This document shows positions 7,010-22,569 of a DNA stretch of 31,035 bases, one piece after another (position 1 is the stretch's first letter; each line of letters begins with the position of its first letter). The translations under genes and the position numbers were made by a program. Below the pieces are notes generated by a model. The model saw only the letters and a list, made by a program, of their open reading frames with translations. It was not told the DNA's origin and searched no databases. Source of the stretch: a virus; UHGV virus genome UHGV-0099061; one strand, given 5' to 3'.

Positions 7010-8488
7010 ATGTTGTCCATCAAAGAAAGGGTTATTCAGTCAAAATGTGAAAACGATGGCCTGTTTTTCAATCGCTACTTCTATAAGCAAGCAAACGGAA
7101 CGAAGATGTTAATCTCAGGCCATCATTTAGCCATCCGTGATGCACTGCAACGCGTTATCAATGGTGAGATAACCCGACTCATCATCAATATTCCCCCAGG
7201 GTACGGCAAAACCATGATCGCCACTATCAATATGATGGCGCGGTCCCTCGCAATAAATCCCCGCACACGCTTCCTTCACGTTTCCTATTCCAACAACCTG
7301 GCGCTACTCAATTCCTCGACAGTAAGAAACATGATCTGTACGCCTGAATATCAGGCAATGTGGACCATGAAGATCCGCAACGATGCCAACAGTAAATCGA
7401 TGTGGTGGACTGAATACGGCGGCGGCGTGTATGCAACGTCATCGCTTGGTCAGGTTACTGGGTTCCGTGCAGGGTATATGGAACCGGGATTTAACGGCGC
7501 GTTAATCATCGATGACCCATTAAAACCCGCTGACGCTTACTCTGACGTGGTGAGAAAGCAGGTTAACACTAACTATAACGACACGCTTGCTTCACGTCTG
7601 GCAGTGCAAACAACGCCTGTTATCGTCATCATGCAACGCATCCACTACGATGATTTGTCAGGCTACCTGCTACGCGGTGGGAGCGGGGAGAAATGGCATC
7701 ACCTGAACCTGCCAGTGAAGATCGACAATAGCGTTGACTATCGGGATTTGTACCCTGAAAACGAGTTCGCTATCCCCATTCCTCACAATCTGCCAGATGG
7801 CTGGCTATGGCCTAAAAAGCACAATGACAGCCATGAAGCAGGACTGAAGGCACACAGACGGTCATTTGAGGCCCAGTACATGCAGCGCCCGCGTAAATTC
7901 GACGAAGAGGGTGCATTGTGGACTGAAGCAATGATAACCGCAGCGCACCGGATGCAGATAACGCAGGAGAAAATACGCACTGTAATAGCTATTGACCCGG
8001 CGACAACATCATCTGATGAGTCTGACGAAACAGGGATCGTGGCATGTTCCGCCTATGGTGGCGGTAAGAATGCTCAGTATTCTGTTGATGGCGACTACTC
8101 AGGCCGCATGTCTCCTAACGACTGGGCGCAGGCATCAATGAACGCCTACAACATCCATGAAGCTGACGCGATGGTTATCGAAACTAACCAGGGCGGCGAA
8201 ATGGCAGAGGCCACGTTGCGTAATGCCGGATTCAAAGGCCGTATTGTTAAGGTGCATGCAAGTAAAGGTAAGTTCGCCCGCGCCGAGCCAATATCGGCAC
8301 TGTATGCACAAGGAAGGGTGGCACACACTGGTGAGCTGTACACGCTGGAAAATCAAATGATGGAATACGTGCCAGCCACCGCTAAAAAATCCCCTGACCG
8401 TATGGATGCTATGGTATGGGGTATCACTGAACTAAGCCAGCCACAGGCGATGGGCCTCATGTTACCTAAGCGCCTGCGAGGGTTTTAA
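7010..8488 (+). CDS. terL: terminase large subunit
   Basis: ~493 aa; Walker A-like PPGYGKT; acidic nuclease-like segments; position between terS and portal; start ATG 7010 (GTG 7004 possible). Confidence 0.85.
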   Translation: MLSIKERVIQSKCENDGLFFNRYFYKQANGTKMLISGHHLAIRDALQRVINGEITRLIINIPPGYGKTMIATINMMARSLAINPRTRFLHVSYSNNLALLNSSTVRNMICTPEYQAMWTMKIRNDANSKSMWWTEYGGGVYATSSLGQVTGFRAGYMEPGFNGALIIDDPLKPADAYSDVVRKQVNTNYNDTLASRLAVQTTPVIVIMQRIHYDDLSGYLLRGGSGEKWHHLNLPVKIDNSVDYRDLYPENEFAIPIPHNLPDGWLWPKKHNDSHEAGLKAHRRSFEAQYMQRPRKFDEEGALWTEAMITAAHRMQITQEKIRTVIAIDPATTSSDESDETGIVACSAYGGGKNAQYSVDGDYSGRMSPNDWAQASMNAYNIHEADAMVIETNQGGEMAEATLRNAGFKGRIVKVHASKGKFARAEPISALYAQGRVAHTGELYTLENQMMEYVPATAKKSPDRMDAMVWGITELSQPQAMGLMLPKRLRGF

Positions 8489-8588
8489 GTTATTGATTAT
8501 TATCAACTTCGAAAAATTTTCGAAGATGAACAATAATAATTCTCAATTAGCTACACAAAATCTGCCTCACAATCCCTCACGAATTTTT

Positions 8589-8615
8589 CTATTTTTCGCG
8601 TAGCAACGCGTAAAC
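8589..8615 (+). promoter_or_regulatory. conserved 27-bp intergenic motif (TATTTTTCGCGTAG-N3-CGCGTAAA), copy 1, upstream of portal gene
   Basis: 24/27 identical to 20902-20928; contains direct repeat CGCGTA; sits 22 nt upstream of portal start in an AT-rich 148-bp gap. Confidence 0.45.
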
Positions 8616-8636
8616 ATGTATTCAGGAGTAAACATT

Positions 8637-10007
8637 ATGCCATCCAATTTAGAATTGGCGGTTAATGCTGCCTTGTCTCAACGCCAGGCGGCCTTTGCCC
8701 GCTATGCAGCGGCACATCCGTTCACTATGGGGATAGATGCCAAACGTGATGCTGCGTGGAGTGAATACGGATTTAAAGAAGAGATCACGTATCACGATCT
8801 ATACAAACTGTACAGACGCGGCGGCATCGCTCACGGTGCTGTAGAAAAGATTGTTACTACTTGCTGGCGCACCAAGCCAAAGATGATTGAAGGAACTGAA
8901 GACGAGAAAGCGAAAAAGGAAACACCGTGGGAAAGAGAAATCAAGAAGAAATTTAACAACAGATTTTGGCGCACTGTTGCTGAATGTGATCGCCGCCGCC
9001 TCATTGGTCGTTACTCTGGTCTGTTAATTCATATCAGAGATAACAAGCCGTGGGATCAGCCAGTGACAAAAGGCGTAGGCATTGCAAAATTTACCCCTGT
9101 GTGGGCTGGCGCTCTTACACCGAAGGACTTCGAAGAAAACCCGGATAATGAAAACTATGGCCTGCCAACGTGGTGGGAATACAAAGAACGCATTAACAGT
9201 AAGACCATTGCCAGAAAGATCCACCCTGACCGCATATTCATCTTTGGCGACTATTCTGATGATGTCATCGCTTTCCTTGAACCTTCCTACAACGCATTCG
9301 TATCACTGGAAAAAGTGGAAGGCGGTAGTGGTGAATCATTCCTGAAAAACGCAGCGCGTCAGCTTGCCATTTCGTTCGATAAAGAGATTGACTTCCGTTC
9401 CCTGGCTGCAACATACGATTGCGACGTTACAGAGTTACGCGAAAGATTCAATGAGGCTACGGCTGAAATGAATAAGGGTAATGACGTAATGATGGCGTTA
9501 CAGGGTGCGACAGTAAGCCCGCTGGTTACTGCCGTATCTGACCCGTCATCAACCTATGACGTAAACCTGCAAACCGCCGCCGCTGGTGTTGATATTCCAA
9601 CCCGCATCTTGGTTGGGAACCAGCAGGGAGAACGCGCATCAACCGAAGACCTGCGTTACTTCAACAGCCGCTGCATGACCCGCAGGGAGGAAATCGGTGG
9701 CGAGATTGAAGATCTGTTCCGCAAGATGGCAGATCTACGCCTTATCAGTATGCCAGTAGATGTATCAGTGCTATGGGACGACCTTAACGCCATGACCAAA
9801 GCAGAGCTACTGGAAGCCGCAGACAAGATGGCGCAAATCAATCAGGCTTGTTTGGCTACTGGTGAAGAAATATTTAGCGGCGATGAGATCCGCGAGGCTG
9901 CCGGATACGATGGCCCAGCCAGTGAAGTAGAAACGGAAGAGGATGACGATGATGAAGGTGAAGAAAATAATCAGGCGAATACCTCCAGCCGCGATAATGC
10001 CATCTAA
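8637..10007 (+). CDS. portal protein
   Basis: ~456 aa ORF directly after terL; AGGAG SD before ATG 8637; acidic C-terminus; standard packaging-module position. Confidence 0.75.
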   Translation: MPSNLELAVNAALSQRQAAFARYAAAHPFTMGIDAKRDAAWSEYGFKEEITYHDLYKLYRRGGIAHGAVEKIVTTCWRTKPKMIEGTEDEKAKKETPWEREIKKKFNNRFWRTVAECDRRRLIGRYSGLLIHIRDNKPWDQPVTKGVGIAKFTPVWAGALTPKDFEENPDNENYGLPTWWEYKERINSKTIARKIHPDRIFIFGDYSDDVIAFLEPSYNAFVSLEKVEGGSGESFLKNAARQLAISFDKEIDFRSLAATYDCDVTELRERFNEATAEMNKGNDVMMALQGATVSPLVTAVSDPSSTYDVNLQTAAAGVDIPTRILVGNQQGERASTEDLRYFNSRCMTRREEIGGEIEDLFRKMADLRLISMPVDVSVLWDDLNAMTKAELLEAADKMAQINQACLATGEEIFSGDEIREAAGYDGPASEVETEEDDDDEGEENNQANTSSRDNAI

Positions 10008-10898: not shown

Positions 10899-12191
10899 GT
10901 GAGTAAAGAATTGATTCAGGTTAATACCAAATTAACCGCTAATACAATCCGCCGTGAAACGTATAACGGGCGGGAACATATTGTTGTTCCGTCCTACACG
11001 TTACCCTTTAACATCGTAATGAACCGGGAATATTACCCGGAAGCTGAAATTATCGCTAATTACCAGTCACTGGAGGGTACGCTTGCCCCGCTGGGCCATC
11101 CTACCGTTGACGGTAAATTTGTTTCCGCATTTAGCCCGGAAGGATTAAACACGGGTTTTTGTGGAGCGTGGAACAGAAACGTTGAATTACGCGGCAATCG
11201 TGTTTATGTGGAAAAATGGGTGGACGTGGAAACCGCCAGCCATTCAGAGCAGGGCCGGGAATTGTTAAGCCGACTGGAAGCGCTGGAGAAGGGAGAGAGC
11301 AAAGATCCTATCTGGTCGTCCGTCGCTGTATATCGCCAGCGTATGCCAGCCACCGAAGACATGAAAGCCCAGGGCGCTGACCATGTAGTGAAAATCATGT
11401 CGATCGACCATGACGCTATTTTGCTGCATGAGCCTCCAGCCGCTTCACCGGAACAAGGTGTAGGCCTGATGGTTAATACTGACCAGGCAAAACCGTTAAT
11501 GTCGGTGGCGATGAAAGAAAACAGCTACAGAACACTTGAGAAACAATTAACAGACGCGGCGCGGGATTTATTCCCTGATGCTGATTATGTGTATGTGGTG
11601 GACTTCACTGATAAAGAGGTGACGATCGCCACTAATGCGGAAAGTGCTCAAGTTTGCGCATATGAAAAACAGGCTGATAAAATTATTCTCAATAATGGCG
11701 AGCTTGCAACCAACGAGGAAAGTAAATCATGGTTTGCTCAGTTCGCTGAACACCTTTCTAATCTTTTCTCCCTGAATGAAAAAATTAAGGCCAATAAATC
11801 GGAGGACGATCCCATGCCTTTGACCAAAGAAGAACGCGCCGAACTGGTAAAAGAAATTAACGAAGGCTTAGCCGCCAATATCGCTAATGCAGTAGCAGAG
11901 GCATTAAAACCAGTACAGGCAAGCGTAGAAGAATTACAGACCAACCAAGAAGAATTACAGACCAACCAGAAAGCAATTAAAGAAGAAATTGCAGCAAACG
12001 CAGATAAAGAAGTAGCAGAAAAACGCGCCGCAGTAGCAAAAGTTCACGGCGAAATTGTTGCTAACGCATTAAGCGGTGAAGCGTTAGACGCAATGTTTAA
12101 ATCCCTGGGTAAAGCAGCACCAATGGCAGCAAACTCAGCCGCTGGTGGAAATAAACCTGCCACCCCTGACATTAACAACTATTTCGCATAA
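10899..12191 (+). CDS. putative scaffold / prohead assembly protein
   Basis: GTG 10899 with GGGAG SD (track starts at TTG 10884); C-terminal coiled-coil with repeated EELQTNQ; position between head morphogenesis and capsid genes. Confidence 0.5.
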   Translation: MSKELIQVNTKLTANTIRRETYNGREHIVVPSYTLPFNIVMNREYYPEAEIIANYQSLEGTLAPLGHPTVDGKFVSAFSPEGLNTGFCGAWNRNVELRGNRVYVEKWVDVETASHSEQGRELLSRLEALEKGESKDPIWSSVAVYRQRMPATEDMKAQGADHVVKIMSIDHDAILLHEPPAASPEQGVGLMVNTDQAKPLMSVAMKENSYRTLEKQLTDAARDLFPDADYVYVVDFTDKEVTIATNAESAQVCAYEKQADKIILNNGELATNEESKSWFAQFAEHLSNLFSLNEKIKANKSEDDPMPLTKEERAELVKEINEGLAANIANAVAEALKPVQASVEELQTNQEELQTNQKAIKEEIAANADKEVAEKRAAVAKVHGEIVANALSGEALDAMFKSLGKAAPMAANSAAGGNKPATPDINNYFA

Positions 12192-13675: not shown

Positions 13676-13694
13676 TTTCGTATTTCCTGTAACT

Positions 13695-13722
13695 CCCCGG
13701 CGCGATGCCGGGGATTTTTTTT
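13695..13722 (+). terminator. rho-independent terminator after capsid gene
   Basis: Stem CCCCGGC / GCCGGGG, 5-nt loop, followed by T8. Confidence 0.7.
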
Positions 13723-17147: not shown

Positions 17148-17807
17148 TTAATTCCAGTTGCAAGCGTTTTTCACTTTGTCGATGTGGTTATAAAGACCAT
17201 CAATGTTAAACACTGCTTTCTCAATGTCGCCAGCTTCCGGCACTACTTCAATGATGAATTGTTTTTCGTTAACCAGTTTTTTAATCATTGGGATGGCTTT
17301 TTTGCCGTCCCATAATCCAAGAGCTTTATAATTAGTTGACCGCCACCACTCAGTAGCTACAGCTTTGTGAACGCCGATCCGGTAGTTAATATAAGTAGTG
17401 TCCCCGGCGTCAGTTACATGGTGTGACCATGCTACGAACATTTTTGTTTTATTACCCTGGCAAGCGATTGTTAATACCGGTTTATTCTTATCCTGTGCCT
17501 TCAGTGTCGGGAAAGCATCAAGACTTCCGCTGAATTGTTCTGCTTTCACAAAAAGGAATACGTTTTTTGCGTCCTGCATATCATCTTTTCTTTCAACTAC
17601 AAGCCACTGTTTACCAGCATTTTCTTTTTCTAACTGTGCATCGTATGCGGCTTGTTTTGCTTGTTGTTCTGCAAGCCATTTAGCATTTTTCTCTGCTAAT
17701 GCTTGTTGCTCTTGATTGGTCACTATAGGCGCTTTTTCATTATCCTCATTGCAACCAACCAGACCCAATACCGCCGCAATCATTGCCACTTTTGCTAACC
17801 GTTTCAT
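17148..17807 (-). CDS. lipoprotein (219 aa), first gene of reverse-strand pair
   Basis: GGTGGG SD; signal peptide with lipobox LVGC; Gln/Ala-rich coiled-coil-like segment after the lipobox; promoter-like palindrome upstream. Confidence 0.65.
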   Translation of the reverse strand: MKRLAKVAMIAAVLGLVGCNEDNEKAPIVTNQEQQALAEKNAKWLAEQQAKQAAYDAQLEKENAGKQWLVVERKDDMQDAKNVFLFVKAEQFSGSLDAFPTLKAQDKNKPVLTIACQGNKTKMFVAWSHHVTDAGDTTYINYRIGVHKAVATEWWRSTNYKALGLWDGKKAIPMIKKLVNEKQFIIEVVPEAGDIEKAVFNIDGLYNHIDKVKNACNWN

Positions 17808-17852: not shown

Positions 17853-17896
17853 CTTATACAAAATGGAGTCGTTGAAGTAAAGCCATTTTGTATAAA
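17853..17896. promoter_or_regulatory. perfect 12-bp palindrome TATACAAAATGG-16 bp-CCATTTTGTATA, probable divergent promoter/operator
   Basis: Seen directly; each arm gives CCATTTTGTATAA(A/G) pointing outward towards the lipoprotein operon (left) and tape measure gene (right). Confidence 0.55.
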
Positions 17897-17934
17897 ATAG
17901 ATGCACAGATCACATTTTTGCATGAGGTTAAATC

Positions 17935-20363: not shown

Positions 20364-20618
20364 TCACTTATGAGTGCCTTTCACGCCACATAACTTGTTA
20401 TAGGCATGGTGCTCAACAATTAACCAAACCTTCAAATCTTCGCTAAACAGCCTCCAATCAAGATTGATATCCATTTTGTATCCGTAACCGTCGCGTAACT
20501 TTTTGGGGTAAACTTCTTTTCTCAGAAAGGCTTTAAGTAATTCCTTACCTTTCTTGATGATCCGGTCCTGTGCGTTTTTCTGTGCTTTCAGATTTCTGTC
20601 AATCGCTACCAGTTTCAT
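20364..20618 (-). CDS. hypothetical basic protein (84 aa), second gene of reverse-strand two-gene cassette
   Basis: ORF with GGGGTGAG SD 17 nt after the stop of the upstream 51-aa ORF; Lys/Arg-rich N-terminal half. Confidence 0.5.
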   Translation of the reverse strand: MKLVAIDRNLKAQKNAQDRIIKKGKELLKAFLRKEVYPKKLRDGYGYKMDINLDWRLFSEDLKVWLIVEHHAYNKLCGVKGTHK

Positions 20619-20635
20619 AACTCACCCCATCATCC

Positions 20636-20791
20636 TTAGTTAAGTGCCTTCAGGAAGAAGTCCCGGTATTCATCTTCTTTCGCATTCATCATGAATTGAC
20701 CGTATTTGAATGCGTCGTCGAAACCCTTAACGATTGCTATTTCCACTTGTTCGAATGCGTTATTTAGCATTACTACTACATAGCGTTTCAT
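20636..20791 (-). CDS. hypothetical small protein (51 aa), first gene of reverse-strand two-gene cassette
   Basis: Found by reading; GGAGG SD 5 nt upstream of ATG; MKRYVVVMLNNAFEQVEIAIVKGFDDAFKYGQFMMNAKEDEYRDFFLKALN. Confidence 0.4.
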   Translation of the reverse strand: MKRYVVVMLNNAFEQVEIAIVKGFDDAFKYGQFMMNAKEDEYRDFFLKALN

Positions 20792-20901
20792 TTTGGGCCT
20801 CCTTCGTTGGTACTACTTTCTTCTTGCTTTCTATATACATCTTGTTGCGTGCTATGTGAAGCCATTTTGTAAACTAGCTATAATCATTGTGACAATGATC
20901 T

Positions 20902-20928
20902 TATTTTTCGCGTAGAAGCGCGTAAAGA
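20902..20928 (+). promoter_or_regulatory. conserved 27-bp intergenic motif, copy 2, upstream of M-like gene
   Basis: 24/27 identical to 8589-8615; 31 nt upstream of ATG 20959. Confidence 0.45.
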
Positions 20929-20958
20929 TATATACAAAATGTAACTTGTGGGGGTTTT

Positions 20959-21312
20959 ATGCCGGAAGTGTTCAGATGGACGCCGCAAAGAAGCTACAGC
21001 GTGACCAGGAAGCCAGACGTATCTGTTGTTAAGCTGGGCGATGGTTATGAGCAAAGACAGGTAAAAGGTATCAATCCATTGCTTGATAGCTACACCCTGG
21101 TGTTTAAAGGCAGTAGCGCCGGATGTGGTGATGGTGGAAACGTAGCAATCCAGGCGGAAGCATTCTTGAGGGCGCGCGGCGCGGTCGAGGCTTTTTACTG
21201 GTCGCCGTCAATGGATAACGTGCAAAGGCTTTTTGTCTGTCGGCAATGGAGCATGACTAAAGACGGGCCTTTGTACACGCTAAACGCAACGTTTGAGCAA
21301 GTTGTTGGCTAA
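20959..21312 (+). CDS. minor tail protein (lambda M-like)
   Basis: 117 aa; FRW..., GDGYEQR and C-terminal FEQVVG resemble lambda M as recalled; position before L-K-I-J. Confidence 0.7.
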   Translation: MPEVFRWTPQRSYSVTRKPDVSVVKLGDGYEQRQVKGINPLLDSYTLVFKGSSAGCGDGGNVAIQAEAFLRARGAVEAFYWSPSMDNVQRLFVCRQWSMTKDGPLYTLNATFEQVVG

Positions 21313-21509: not shown

Positions 21510-21515
21510 ACACGA

Positions 21516-21543
21516 CCCCGCGCGAAGCGGGGTTATTTTTATT
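21516..21543 (+). terminator. rho-independent terminator
   Basis: Stem CCCCGC / GCGGGG with GCGAA loop followed by TTATTTTTATT. Confidence 0.6.
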
Positions 21544-22440: not shown

Positions 22441-22569
22441 AACGCACCTCCGCGCCATTTTGTTAACTATGCTTCCGTTTGAGTAAAATATACATATTGT
22501 AAAAACCGCGATCAATCCATTTTGGTATGATTTAGCGTGACGCAGATCACAGAATGACAAGGTGAGAAA

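Follow-up and report, generated by a model that had tools for sequence, protein, structure and literature searches.

In Escherichia coli, short stem-loops in leaders and between cistrons act on the stability of messenger RNA, well-known cases being the 5' stabiliser of ompA and the RNase E processing between papB and papA. In phage P1, the Lpa-dependent late promoters have a palindrome in place of the -35 element and a standard -10. The mEpimmI phages, temperate coliphages of the gut, were put forward as a new family in 2025, and their early (N-like) antitermination has already been studied. Members of the mEp021 group depend on Nus factors and have three nut sites, one more than lambda (PMC11893012). 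Here we describe a short motif that occurs twice in the virus genome UHGV-0099061, a stretch of 31,035 nucleotides that is called the window throughout. One copy precedes the portal gene, and the other precedes a gene for an M-like minor tail protein.

Judged by its sequence, the window is a relative of the mEp021 (mEpimmI) temperate E. coli phages. Seven deposited temperate coliphages (mEp021, mEp010, mEp013, mEp044, mEp515, mEp554 and MagusPhagus) share 87-91% identity with the region around the motif, and the window is alignable to mEp021 from ~23.2 kb to 53.4 kb, that is, from just past the Q-like gene through the tail-tip gene. We tentatively favour a reading of the motif as a transcribed, strand-specific cis-regulatory leader element of two late units, acting on late mRNA. 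The two units would be the head module, from the portal gene on, and the M-like tail-tip gene.

Sequence and anatomy of the motif

The two copies share a 25-nt core, TATTTTTCGCGTAG-NNN-CGCGTAAA, at 8590-8614 and 20902-20926, both on the + strand and with no mismatch outside the NNN. The number of core matches expected by chance is 0.00 (100 shuffles). The repeat had been noticed in the original prediction as a 27-mer, and it is indeed identical at 24 of 27 positions, with flanking blocks free of mismatches. The first copy had been placed at 8589-8615, one base too low; the 27-mer TATTTTTCGCGTAGCAACGCGTAAACA occupies 8590-8616 (+ strand, covariance model 63.2 bits), while the coordinates of the second copy, TATTTTTCGCGTAGAAGCGCGTAAAGA, stand at 20902-20928 (+ strand, 66.9 bits). 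The likeness runs beyond 27 nt. BLAST aligns ~46 bp between 8579-8624 of the window and copy 2 of mEp021, and the block common to both copies is TTCTnATTTTTCGCGTAG-NNN-CGCGTAAAnATrTATnCA, or, written as RNA, TTCTnA-TTTTT-CGCG-U-AGmA-r-CGCG-UAAA-nAUrUAUnCA.

Each copy could form a small hairpin. In copy 1 the arms would be CGCG(U) at 8597-8601 and (A)CGCG at 8606-8610 around the loop AGCA at 8602-8605, with a T-run (8592-8596) and TAAA (8611-8614) on the flanks; in copy 2, CGCG at 20909-20912 and CGCG at 20919-20922 would enclose the loop UAGAAG. The hairpin has a G/C stem of 4-5 bp and a purine-rich loop, with a predicted energy from -6 (copy 1) to -7.7 kcal/mol, and three U-A pairs could lengthen it across a conserved U.U mismatch. 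As DNA, the core is an 18/22 dyad, TTTTCGCGT-N4-ACGCGTAAA, and it is also readable as direct repeats, CGCGTA-N4-CGCGTA, set 10 bp (one helical turn) apart.

The distance from the motif to the start codon is constant at each site and unequal between the sites: 20 nt to the portal gene (PF06381; 8637-10007, + strand; ATG at 8637, Shine-Dalgarno sequence (SD) AGGAG at 8624-8628) and 30 nt to the M-like gene (PF05939; 20959-21312, + strand; ATG at 20959, SD GGGGG at 20950-20954). At the portal gene, the conserved leader block spans 8584-8636 on the + strand and comprises the U-rich tract, the hairpin, an A-tract, ATGTATTC, the SD and the spacer to the ATG. The same leader contains a direct repeat, GTAAACAT, at 8610-8617 and 8628-8635, 18 nt apart; its first copy lies right 3' of the hairpin, with an in-frame ATG following, and its second directly 5' of the portal ATG. 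In the M leader, a minimal start-stop open reading frame (ORF), ATGTAA, is found at 20938-20943, without an SD and in all group members. Its variants GTGTAA (locus L256) and ATGTGA (locus L073) both remain start-stop, two events being too few to judge.

Distribution and conservation

In the window and in the complete mEp021 genome alike, the motif occurs exactly twice, according to regular-expression searches with up to five mismatches and an unfiltered covariance-model search in which the true copies score 63-67 bits and the next match 11.9 bits. By the same searches, no third or degenerate copy lies on either strand of these two sequences. A trans-acting antisense copy elsewhere in the genome was likewise considered and rejected, neither strand having one.

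Among about 100 relatives, the motif always stands ahead of the portal and M-like genes, in the same orientation. An exact-pattern scan of IMG/VR returned 45 portal contexts, 33 M-like contexts, two unrelated matches of the chance type and one copy with an inserted gene between it and M. When loci were retrieved by way of their proteins, all of them had the motif (49 of 49 for the portal gene, 30 of 30 for the M gene of the group). A metagenome scan that used the promoter-like element beside copy 2 as its anchor added ~24 further copies, consisting only of variants already known. Within the phage database the motif belongs to the seven group members exclusively, at two places in each. It is missing at the M-like genes of other phages at 70% identity or below and at ~60%-identity portal genes from Enterobacter, Citrobacter, Klebsiella, Serratia and other E. 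coli prophages; a scan of species-representative genomes for deeper relatives returned no motif.

Copy 1 is invariant in eight of eight genomes and canonical in 44 of the 49 IMG/VR loci. Nucleotide diversity (pi), over 49 distinct sequences, is 0.011 in the portal block 8584-8636, whereas third codon positions and the spacer beside the block (8559-8583) reach 0.19-0.23. In the M-site core it is 0.061, against 0.29-0.33 at neutral-like sites. The motif is under strong purifying selection, being 5- to 20-fold more conserved than adjoining neutral-like sites, and no other non-coding sequence of the examined late region is as conserved. None of the seven deposited records annotates it, and the searchable literature holds no mention of its sequence. 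The comparisons support the view that it is a strongly selected functional cis-element tied to late structural genes.

Two conserved copies were thus found in every relative retrieved, so the original prediction survives, in a narrower form. Its suggestion of a late regulatory site is supported as far as the motif is concerned, which is conserved, fixed in position and attached to late genes; the AT-rich gap in which copy 1 was first seen is no part of the signal.

The gap between terminase and portal

The gap that separates the large terminase gene (TerL, Terminase_6C domain; 7004-8488, + strand, stop codon 8486-8488), the 5' neighbour of copy 1, from the portal gene covers 8489-8636 of the window, or 148 bp. 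Its first 70 bp (8489-8558, no strand assigned) are an AT-rich palindromic indel that lies outside the conserved element. Both near-palindromes previously reported in the gap, TTGATTATTATCAA (8493-8506) and CGAAAAATTTTCG (8510-8522), are present and fall inside this segment, where they form a strong predicted hairpin (fold z = -4.5). By alignment, the insert is missing in seven of seven deposited relatives, whose gap is 78 bp. It occurs in 10 of 49 distinct relatives and is lacking in the other 39; where it occurs, in two flank lineages, its boundaries are identical and there are a few internal differences. About 9 of 35 E. coli prophages carry it. The usual gap is therefore 78 bp, not 148 bp, and the spacer owes its unusual length and AT-richness solely to the indel. 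From these alignments the 70-bp segment is an old, dispensable indel, and the long, AT-rich gap with its palindromes is not supported as part of the signal.

The insert is ~85% (83-85%) identical to one other E. coli locus (L294, 2501-2560), an AT-rich island beside eutA. Matches to the insert came from 16 E. coli genomes in all, and both of the two that were inspected lie at the same locus. The likeness suggests that a short sequence was exchanged between the prophage and the island. A dispersed miniature palindromic or mobile element was rejected as an identity for the insert, since besides the phage locus only the one locus beside eutA matches in E. coli, the same in both matches inspected.

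Between the TerL stop codon, or the insert where it is present, and the conserved block lies a hypervariable spacer (8559-8583, + strand; pi = 0.198, 64% variable columns). In portal relatives at ~60% identity (L296-L301), the same portal/Mu-F/scaffold head module is joined to three different terminase combinations: Terminase_3 with DUF2280, with an Sf6-type TerS or with Terminase_2, and Terminase_6C with DUF2280. Such differing combinations beside one head module mark the TerL-portal junction as a mosaic recombination boundary. The longer TerL-portal gaps of these relatives contain a small Cys-rich ORF (e.g. MPKKCKCSSCERRRKGW...).

Transcriptional setting

The genes of the group include one for a genuine Q antiterminator (PF03589, 103 bits), and a Q-type late promoter/terminator cassette, nearly invariant in six genomes, lies ahead of the holin gene at ~3766-3838. 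The cassette comprises TTTGTA-N18-TAAAAT, a -10-like AACAAT a few nt past the predicted start, which is likely a sigma-dependent pause element, and a strong terminator (ACCCGGCCCCGCGCCGGGT plus a T-run). By analogy with lambdoid phages, the late genes would be read by terminator-resistant polymerase from this cassette. With the Q antiterminator and the conserved late cassette in place, there is no need for additional late promoters. Reverse-strand islands with bidirectional terminators on their flanks break up the late region, and strong terminators lie 3' of both copies of the motif, at 13694-13714 and 21514-21534. The latter, which is bidirectional, follows the M-like gene and a 65-aa ORF.

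The two copies differ in what lies upstream. A conserved sigma-70-type promoter-like element, GTGAAG-N17-TATAAT (20856-20884, + strand), ends 17 nt 5' of copy 2; across 31 distinct sequences its TATAAT is invariant and its -35-like hexamer nearly so. Its predicted start at ~20891 would place copy 2 at about +11 to +37 of the transcript. A stricter promoter scan made no call at 20856-20884, where the -35 matches at 3 of 6 positions only. Unrelated metagenome matches to the degenerate pattern have the same perfect TATAAT, and TGAA at the -35 position. Copy 1 has no promoter-like site outside the dispensable insert, and no conserved promoter hexamers occur in 8559-8583.

A different repeat, GCCATTTTGTA..., is found at 17876-17915, 20860-20884, 22454-22470, 22516-22555 and 29886-29912, often together with CACAGATCACA (which contains GATC) and an extended -10-like TGgTATGAT or TGgTAGAAT. 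It marks each intergenic restart of the + strand late genes after a reverse-strand island, namely those of the tape-measure, M-like, L-like and tail-tip genes, and the similar CAAAATGGTATGAC lies just 5' of the mEp021 repressor gene (L008, ~11175-11190). From their sequence and positions, these repeats look like a family of internal promoters.

Pattern of variation

Nearly all changes in the motif fall in the central triplet, which reads CAA, AAG, AAT, AGG, CTA, CGA or AAA. The CAA and AAG triplets are now and then exchanged between portal and M sites, and a rare M-site variant has the loop UGGAAG. The motif also tolerates a change of length, its centre being 1 nt shorter at the M site in two metagenomic contigs; a portal-site contig from one of the same samples has normal spacing, though it need not stem from the same genome. 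The stem has only two substitutions, both C-to-T and one in each arm, and in + strand RNA both result in a G.U pair. The closing pair of the hairpin is U-A, U.G or U.U. Counted over the alignment, 97.8% of cells are paired, with three one-sided, wobble-compatible changes and no double changes. When an arm changes at the M site, the portal site of that genome does not change with it.

Conservation is directional, with TTCTnA upstream of the core and nATrTATnCA downstream, and the T/A asymmetry beside the CGCG arms is essentially invariant (one T-to-C variant). In one prophage (L221, IMGVR_UViG_2695420423_000006, minus strand near 8669), an HNH homing-endonuclease gene (MNWNDIFHYQEGEIYWKT...) has come to lie between copy 2 and the ribosome-binding site (RBS) of M. 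Even there the motif keeps its place at the 5' end of the unit, with over 500 nt separating it from the start codon of M. HNH genes are found at varying places in other group members.

Candidate functions

As a leader element acting on late mRNA, the core would be an RNA stem-loop, CGCG / 6-nt purine-rich loop / CGCG, set between an invariant U-tract and an invariant UAAA. Late transcripts would come from Q-modified RNA polymerase started at the upstream late promoter, and those of copy 2 also from the local sigma-70-type promoter. The element would then act on the RNA after synthesis, most likely as a processing-and-stability module: the transcript would be cut in its single-stranded, U-rich stretch, and the GC hairpin, then close to the newly made 5' end, would protect the downstream portal/head and M mRNAs. 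Processing of this kind would uncouple the abundance of those mRNAs from that of upstream terminase or antisense RNA. Alternatively or in addition, the element could be a docking site for a sequence-specific RNA-binding factor, as the strict sequence conservation suggests.

Several observations point to the RNA level. Action on RNA or on elongating complexes alone fits both contexts, promoterless and inside an operon at copy 1 and just past a promoter at copy 2. The hypervariability of the spacer upstream of copy 1, and its tolerance of a 70-bp insertion, also count for function as RNA. The 1-nt shorter centre seen at the M site would be easily tolerated by a loop and not by two DNA half-sites, which counts for a hairpin. 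Directional conservation, the wobble-compatible stem changes, tolerance in loop length and a position independent of the RBS together lead us to prefer an RNA element over a DNA operator. Its nature as RNA and its part in processing or stabilisation are what we infer from this pattern.

Other results weigh on the opposite side. Two-sided compensatory changes number zero and shuffle controls equal the observed value, so that covariation lends no statistical support; with so little variation in the core, the controls carry no information. On its own the hairpin is a weak one, at -6 to -7.7 kcal/mol (z = -1.4 to -1.7), and no significant fold is seen in the wider leaders. The two C-to-U changes could come from mutation bias alone, with a chance that rough reasoning puts at ~1 in 9 to 1 in 4. 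Strict conservation of primary sequence, the 18/22 dyad included, is equally typical of a protein-bound DNA operator. In the primary transcript of copy 2 the hairpin would begin 13-17 nt from the 5' end, and stabilisers of the ompA type at that distance are too far in to protect without prior cleavage.

The main rival, which is possible though doubtful, is a double-stranded DNA operator in which the dyad would be bound by a phage or host regulator. The regulator might activate the head and M units, or it might repress them as a roadblock, for example by silencing the sigma-70-type promoter ahead of M in the lysogen. Symmetry at 18 of 22 positions, and very strictly conserved arms and flanks around a variable centre, are the usual operator pattern, but the asymmetry of the arms is essentially invariant and shows no drift toward symmetry. 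Copy 2 sits in a classical operator position, from +11 to +37 relative to a promoter-like element whose -10 is perfect, whereas copy 1 has no suitably placed promoter and, in 20% of genomes, a 70-bp shift in its upstream distance. That each genome has exactly two sites would be compatible with a dedicated regulator; yet the arms are 9 bp rather than 10 bp apart at the M site of the two short-centre contigs, with 10 bp in the portal-site contig of one same sample, and substitutions in the M-site arms go unmatched at the portal site. As for known candidates, the palindromes of the immunity region differ from the motif (TTGCA-N4-TGCAA type), so a CI-like repressor is not the binder, and the ParE-like toxin-antitoxin pair that adjoins copy 2 cannot account for the portal copy. 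Comparison by eye, without a formal test, gave no convincing match to the host boxes of PurR, TyrR, CRP or IHF.

We think it unlikely that a dedicated phage regulator docks on RNA at the twin motif, or that the two copies are a second target class of the N-like Gp17. Were it so, the head module and the tail-tip gene would be co-ordinated independently of the Q antiterminator, through a second, family-specific layer of late control that acts on RNA or on elongating polymerase and has no lambda counterpart.

Elongation control is quite unlikely in our estimate. On this view Gp17 or another factor would read the motif as one more nut-like (boxB-like) hairpin, or the motif would be a pause signal; in either case RNA polymerase would be modified so as to pass the terminators 3' of each copy. 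The group's dependence on Nus factors and its three nut sites (PMC11893012) speak for the idea, as do the strong terminators 3' of both copies and the capacity of nut sites to work near promoters or inside operons, which fits both contexts. The boxB hairpins of the group, GCCGC-UGGAAGU-GCGGC, GCGC-UGAAAU-GCGU and UCGC-UGCGAA-GCGA, have the same style of 4-5-bp G/C stem and 6-7-nt, purine-rich loop that starts with U. All three real mEp021 nut sites, however, have a boxA (GCTCTTTAA-like) 7-8 nt 5' of the hairpin, which the motif lacks, its T-run abutting the stem, and an ordinary nut site was rejected on this ground. In over 90% of genomes the loops AGCA/AGAA have A, not G, as the second base of the 6-nt loop, the first GNRA position; the rare M-site loop UGGAAG, with GGAA, does fit a GNRA-type boxB. 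The canonical Q cassette already gives the late genes processive antitermination, and inspection found no conserved consensus pause sequence 10-12 nt past the hairpin.

An activator-dependent late promoter, with the palindrome (centred at about -21) in place of the -35 and AAAnAT as a weak -10, is very unlikely. Neither copy varies at the A in position 2 or the final T of AAAnAT, which correspond to the key positions -11 and -7, and the geometry from palindrome centre to -10 is constant, but no usable -35 is present (CTATTT/TTATTT), and at copy 1 the start would coincide with the first base of the SD, at ~8624, so that the leader would be 13 nt long. The M unit lies between terminators and needs a promoter of its own; a much better conserved one already stands 17 nt 5' of copy 2, and the restarts at the tape-measure, L-like and tail-tip genes use other promoter-like elements without the motif. 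The proteins scanned include no late activator besides Q. An unaided sigma-70 promoter at the motif itself was rejected because its own hexamers are poor and scans were negative.

In phages of the P22/Sf6 headful class, pac lies inside terS. That the motif could be pac or another terminase recognition site, as the original prediction had offered for the gap, is hardly credible: although it adjoins the terminase genes and its direct repeats at 10-bp spacing could in principle touch a ring of small-terminase HTH domains, the small terminase (terS, 6381-7007; PF20901, 127 bits) is Sf6-type and TerL is Terminase_6C, which is the P22/Sf6 headful class, while the motif lies 3' of TerL in two equally conserved copies 12.3 kb apart, the second among the tail genes, the CGCGTAAA octamers within terS and TerL are not enriched (P ~0.14) and have no common flanks, and ~60%-identity portal relatives join the head module to other terminase types without the motif.

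Further identities were rejected outright. An intrinsic terminator does not fit, as neither copy has a terminator-like site on either strand and the hairpin is followed by UAAA (+) or an A-run (-). For a Q-binding or qut site, the late cassette has only GCGTAAAC in common with the motif, this octamer is not conserved in relatives and its count is not significant (3 observed against 1.3 expected), and copy 1 has no promoter. No Rfam family matches at the gathering threshold in the whole window, and only noise was seen around both copies at E up to 10. A hidden small ORF is discounted as well: over both blocks there are only spurious ORFs with TTG starts and none that is credible, and the variation has no codon periodicity.

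Neighbouring genes

The reverse-strand island that adjoins copy 2 (20364-20791, - strand) encodes the ParE-like toxin (PF24732) and a 51-aa upstream partner. Another, ahead of the tape-measure gene (17148-17807, - strand), encodes a VasI-like protein (type VI secretion, PF11319).

The portal protein (PF06381, formerly DUF1073) and hundreds of its homologues are named 'anti-CBASS protein Acb1 family protein' by RefSeq/PGAP. This label is odd for a gene between terminase and a Mu-F-like head protein, and the name may be misleading. In mEp021 (L001, 3047-3070, against window 8616-8639), the usual portal ATG of all other members reads ATA. The mEp021 record starts the portal at an in-frame ATG equivalent to window 8616, without an SD; the alternative is an in-frame TTG one codon past the usual start. 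The oddity may be a quirk of sequence or annotation in that record.

Significance and comparison with known systems

The motif offers a precise target of 27-55 nt for mutagenesis and transcript mapping, and the impression of a functional, AT-rich, palindromic gap is corrected. If the motif were a processing or stability signal, it would explain unequal levels of terminase and head proteins from one Q-dependent transcript; a bound factor, if there is one, would be a new regulator. The pair of motifs is also a specific signature by which mEpimmI prophages can be spotted in genomes and metagenomes. As to kind, the motif is a family-specific addition to a familiar class, the short conserved cis-regulatory stem-loops and operators of phage late regions.

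Four known systems can be set beside it, and it resembles each of them in part. Like the sites at ompA and papBA, the motif is a short, stable hairpin directly 3' of an AU-rich single-stranded tract, placed in an untranslated leader between a terminase needed at low level and portal/head genes needed at high level; it is strand-specific, and its distance from the start codon is not critical. Those sites are defined by structure and show little sequence conservation, whereas the primary sequence of the motif, including the U.U mismatch, is essentially invariant, which suggests a sequence-specific partner. Like the nut sites of lambda and mEp021 (PMC11893012), it has a small G/C stem and a purine-rich 6-nt loop starting with U; it is transcribed, can act in operons, has terminators downstream and belongs to a phage group with an N-like protein. 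It differs from them in having no boxA at the proper spacing and a loop that in most genomes, as AGCA/AGAA, is not of the GNRA type, and in lying in the late region instead of after early promoters.

With the dyad operators of dimeric regulators the motif has in common an 18/22 palindrome with conserved arms and a variable centre, but its spacing differs by 1 bp in some genomes, one of its copies has no partner promoter, and its conservation extends in a directional manner beyond the dyad. Like the P1 Lpa promoters described above, it has a palindrome centred ~21 bp upstream of a possible start, before a -10-like hexamer and late structural genes. Unlike them, its -10 is poor, the start at the portal copy would fall inside the SD, there are two sites only, and late genes are governed by antitermination of the Q type.

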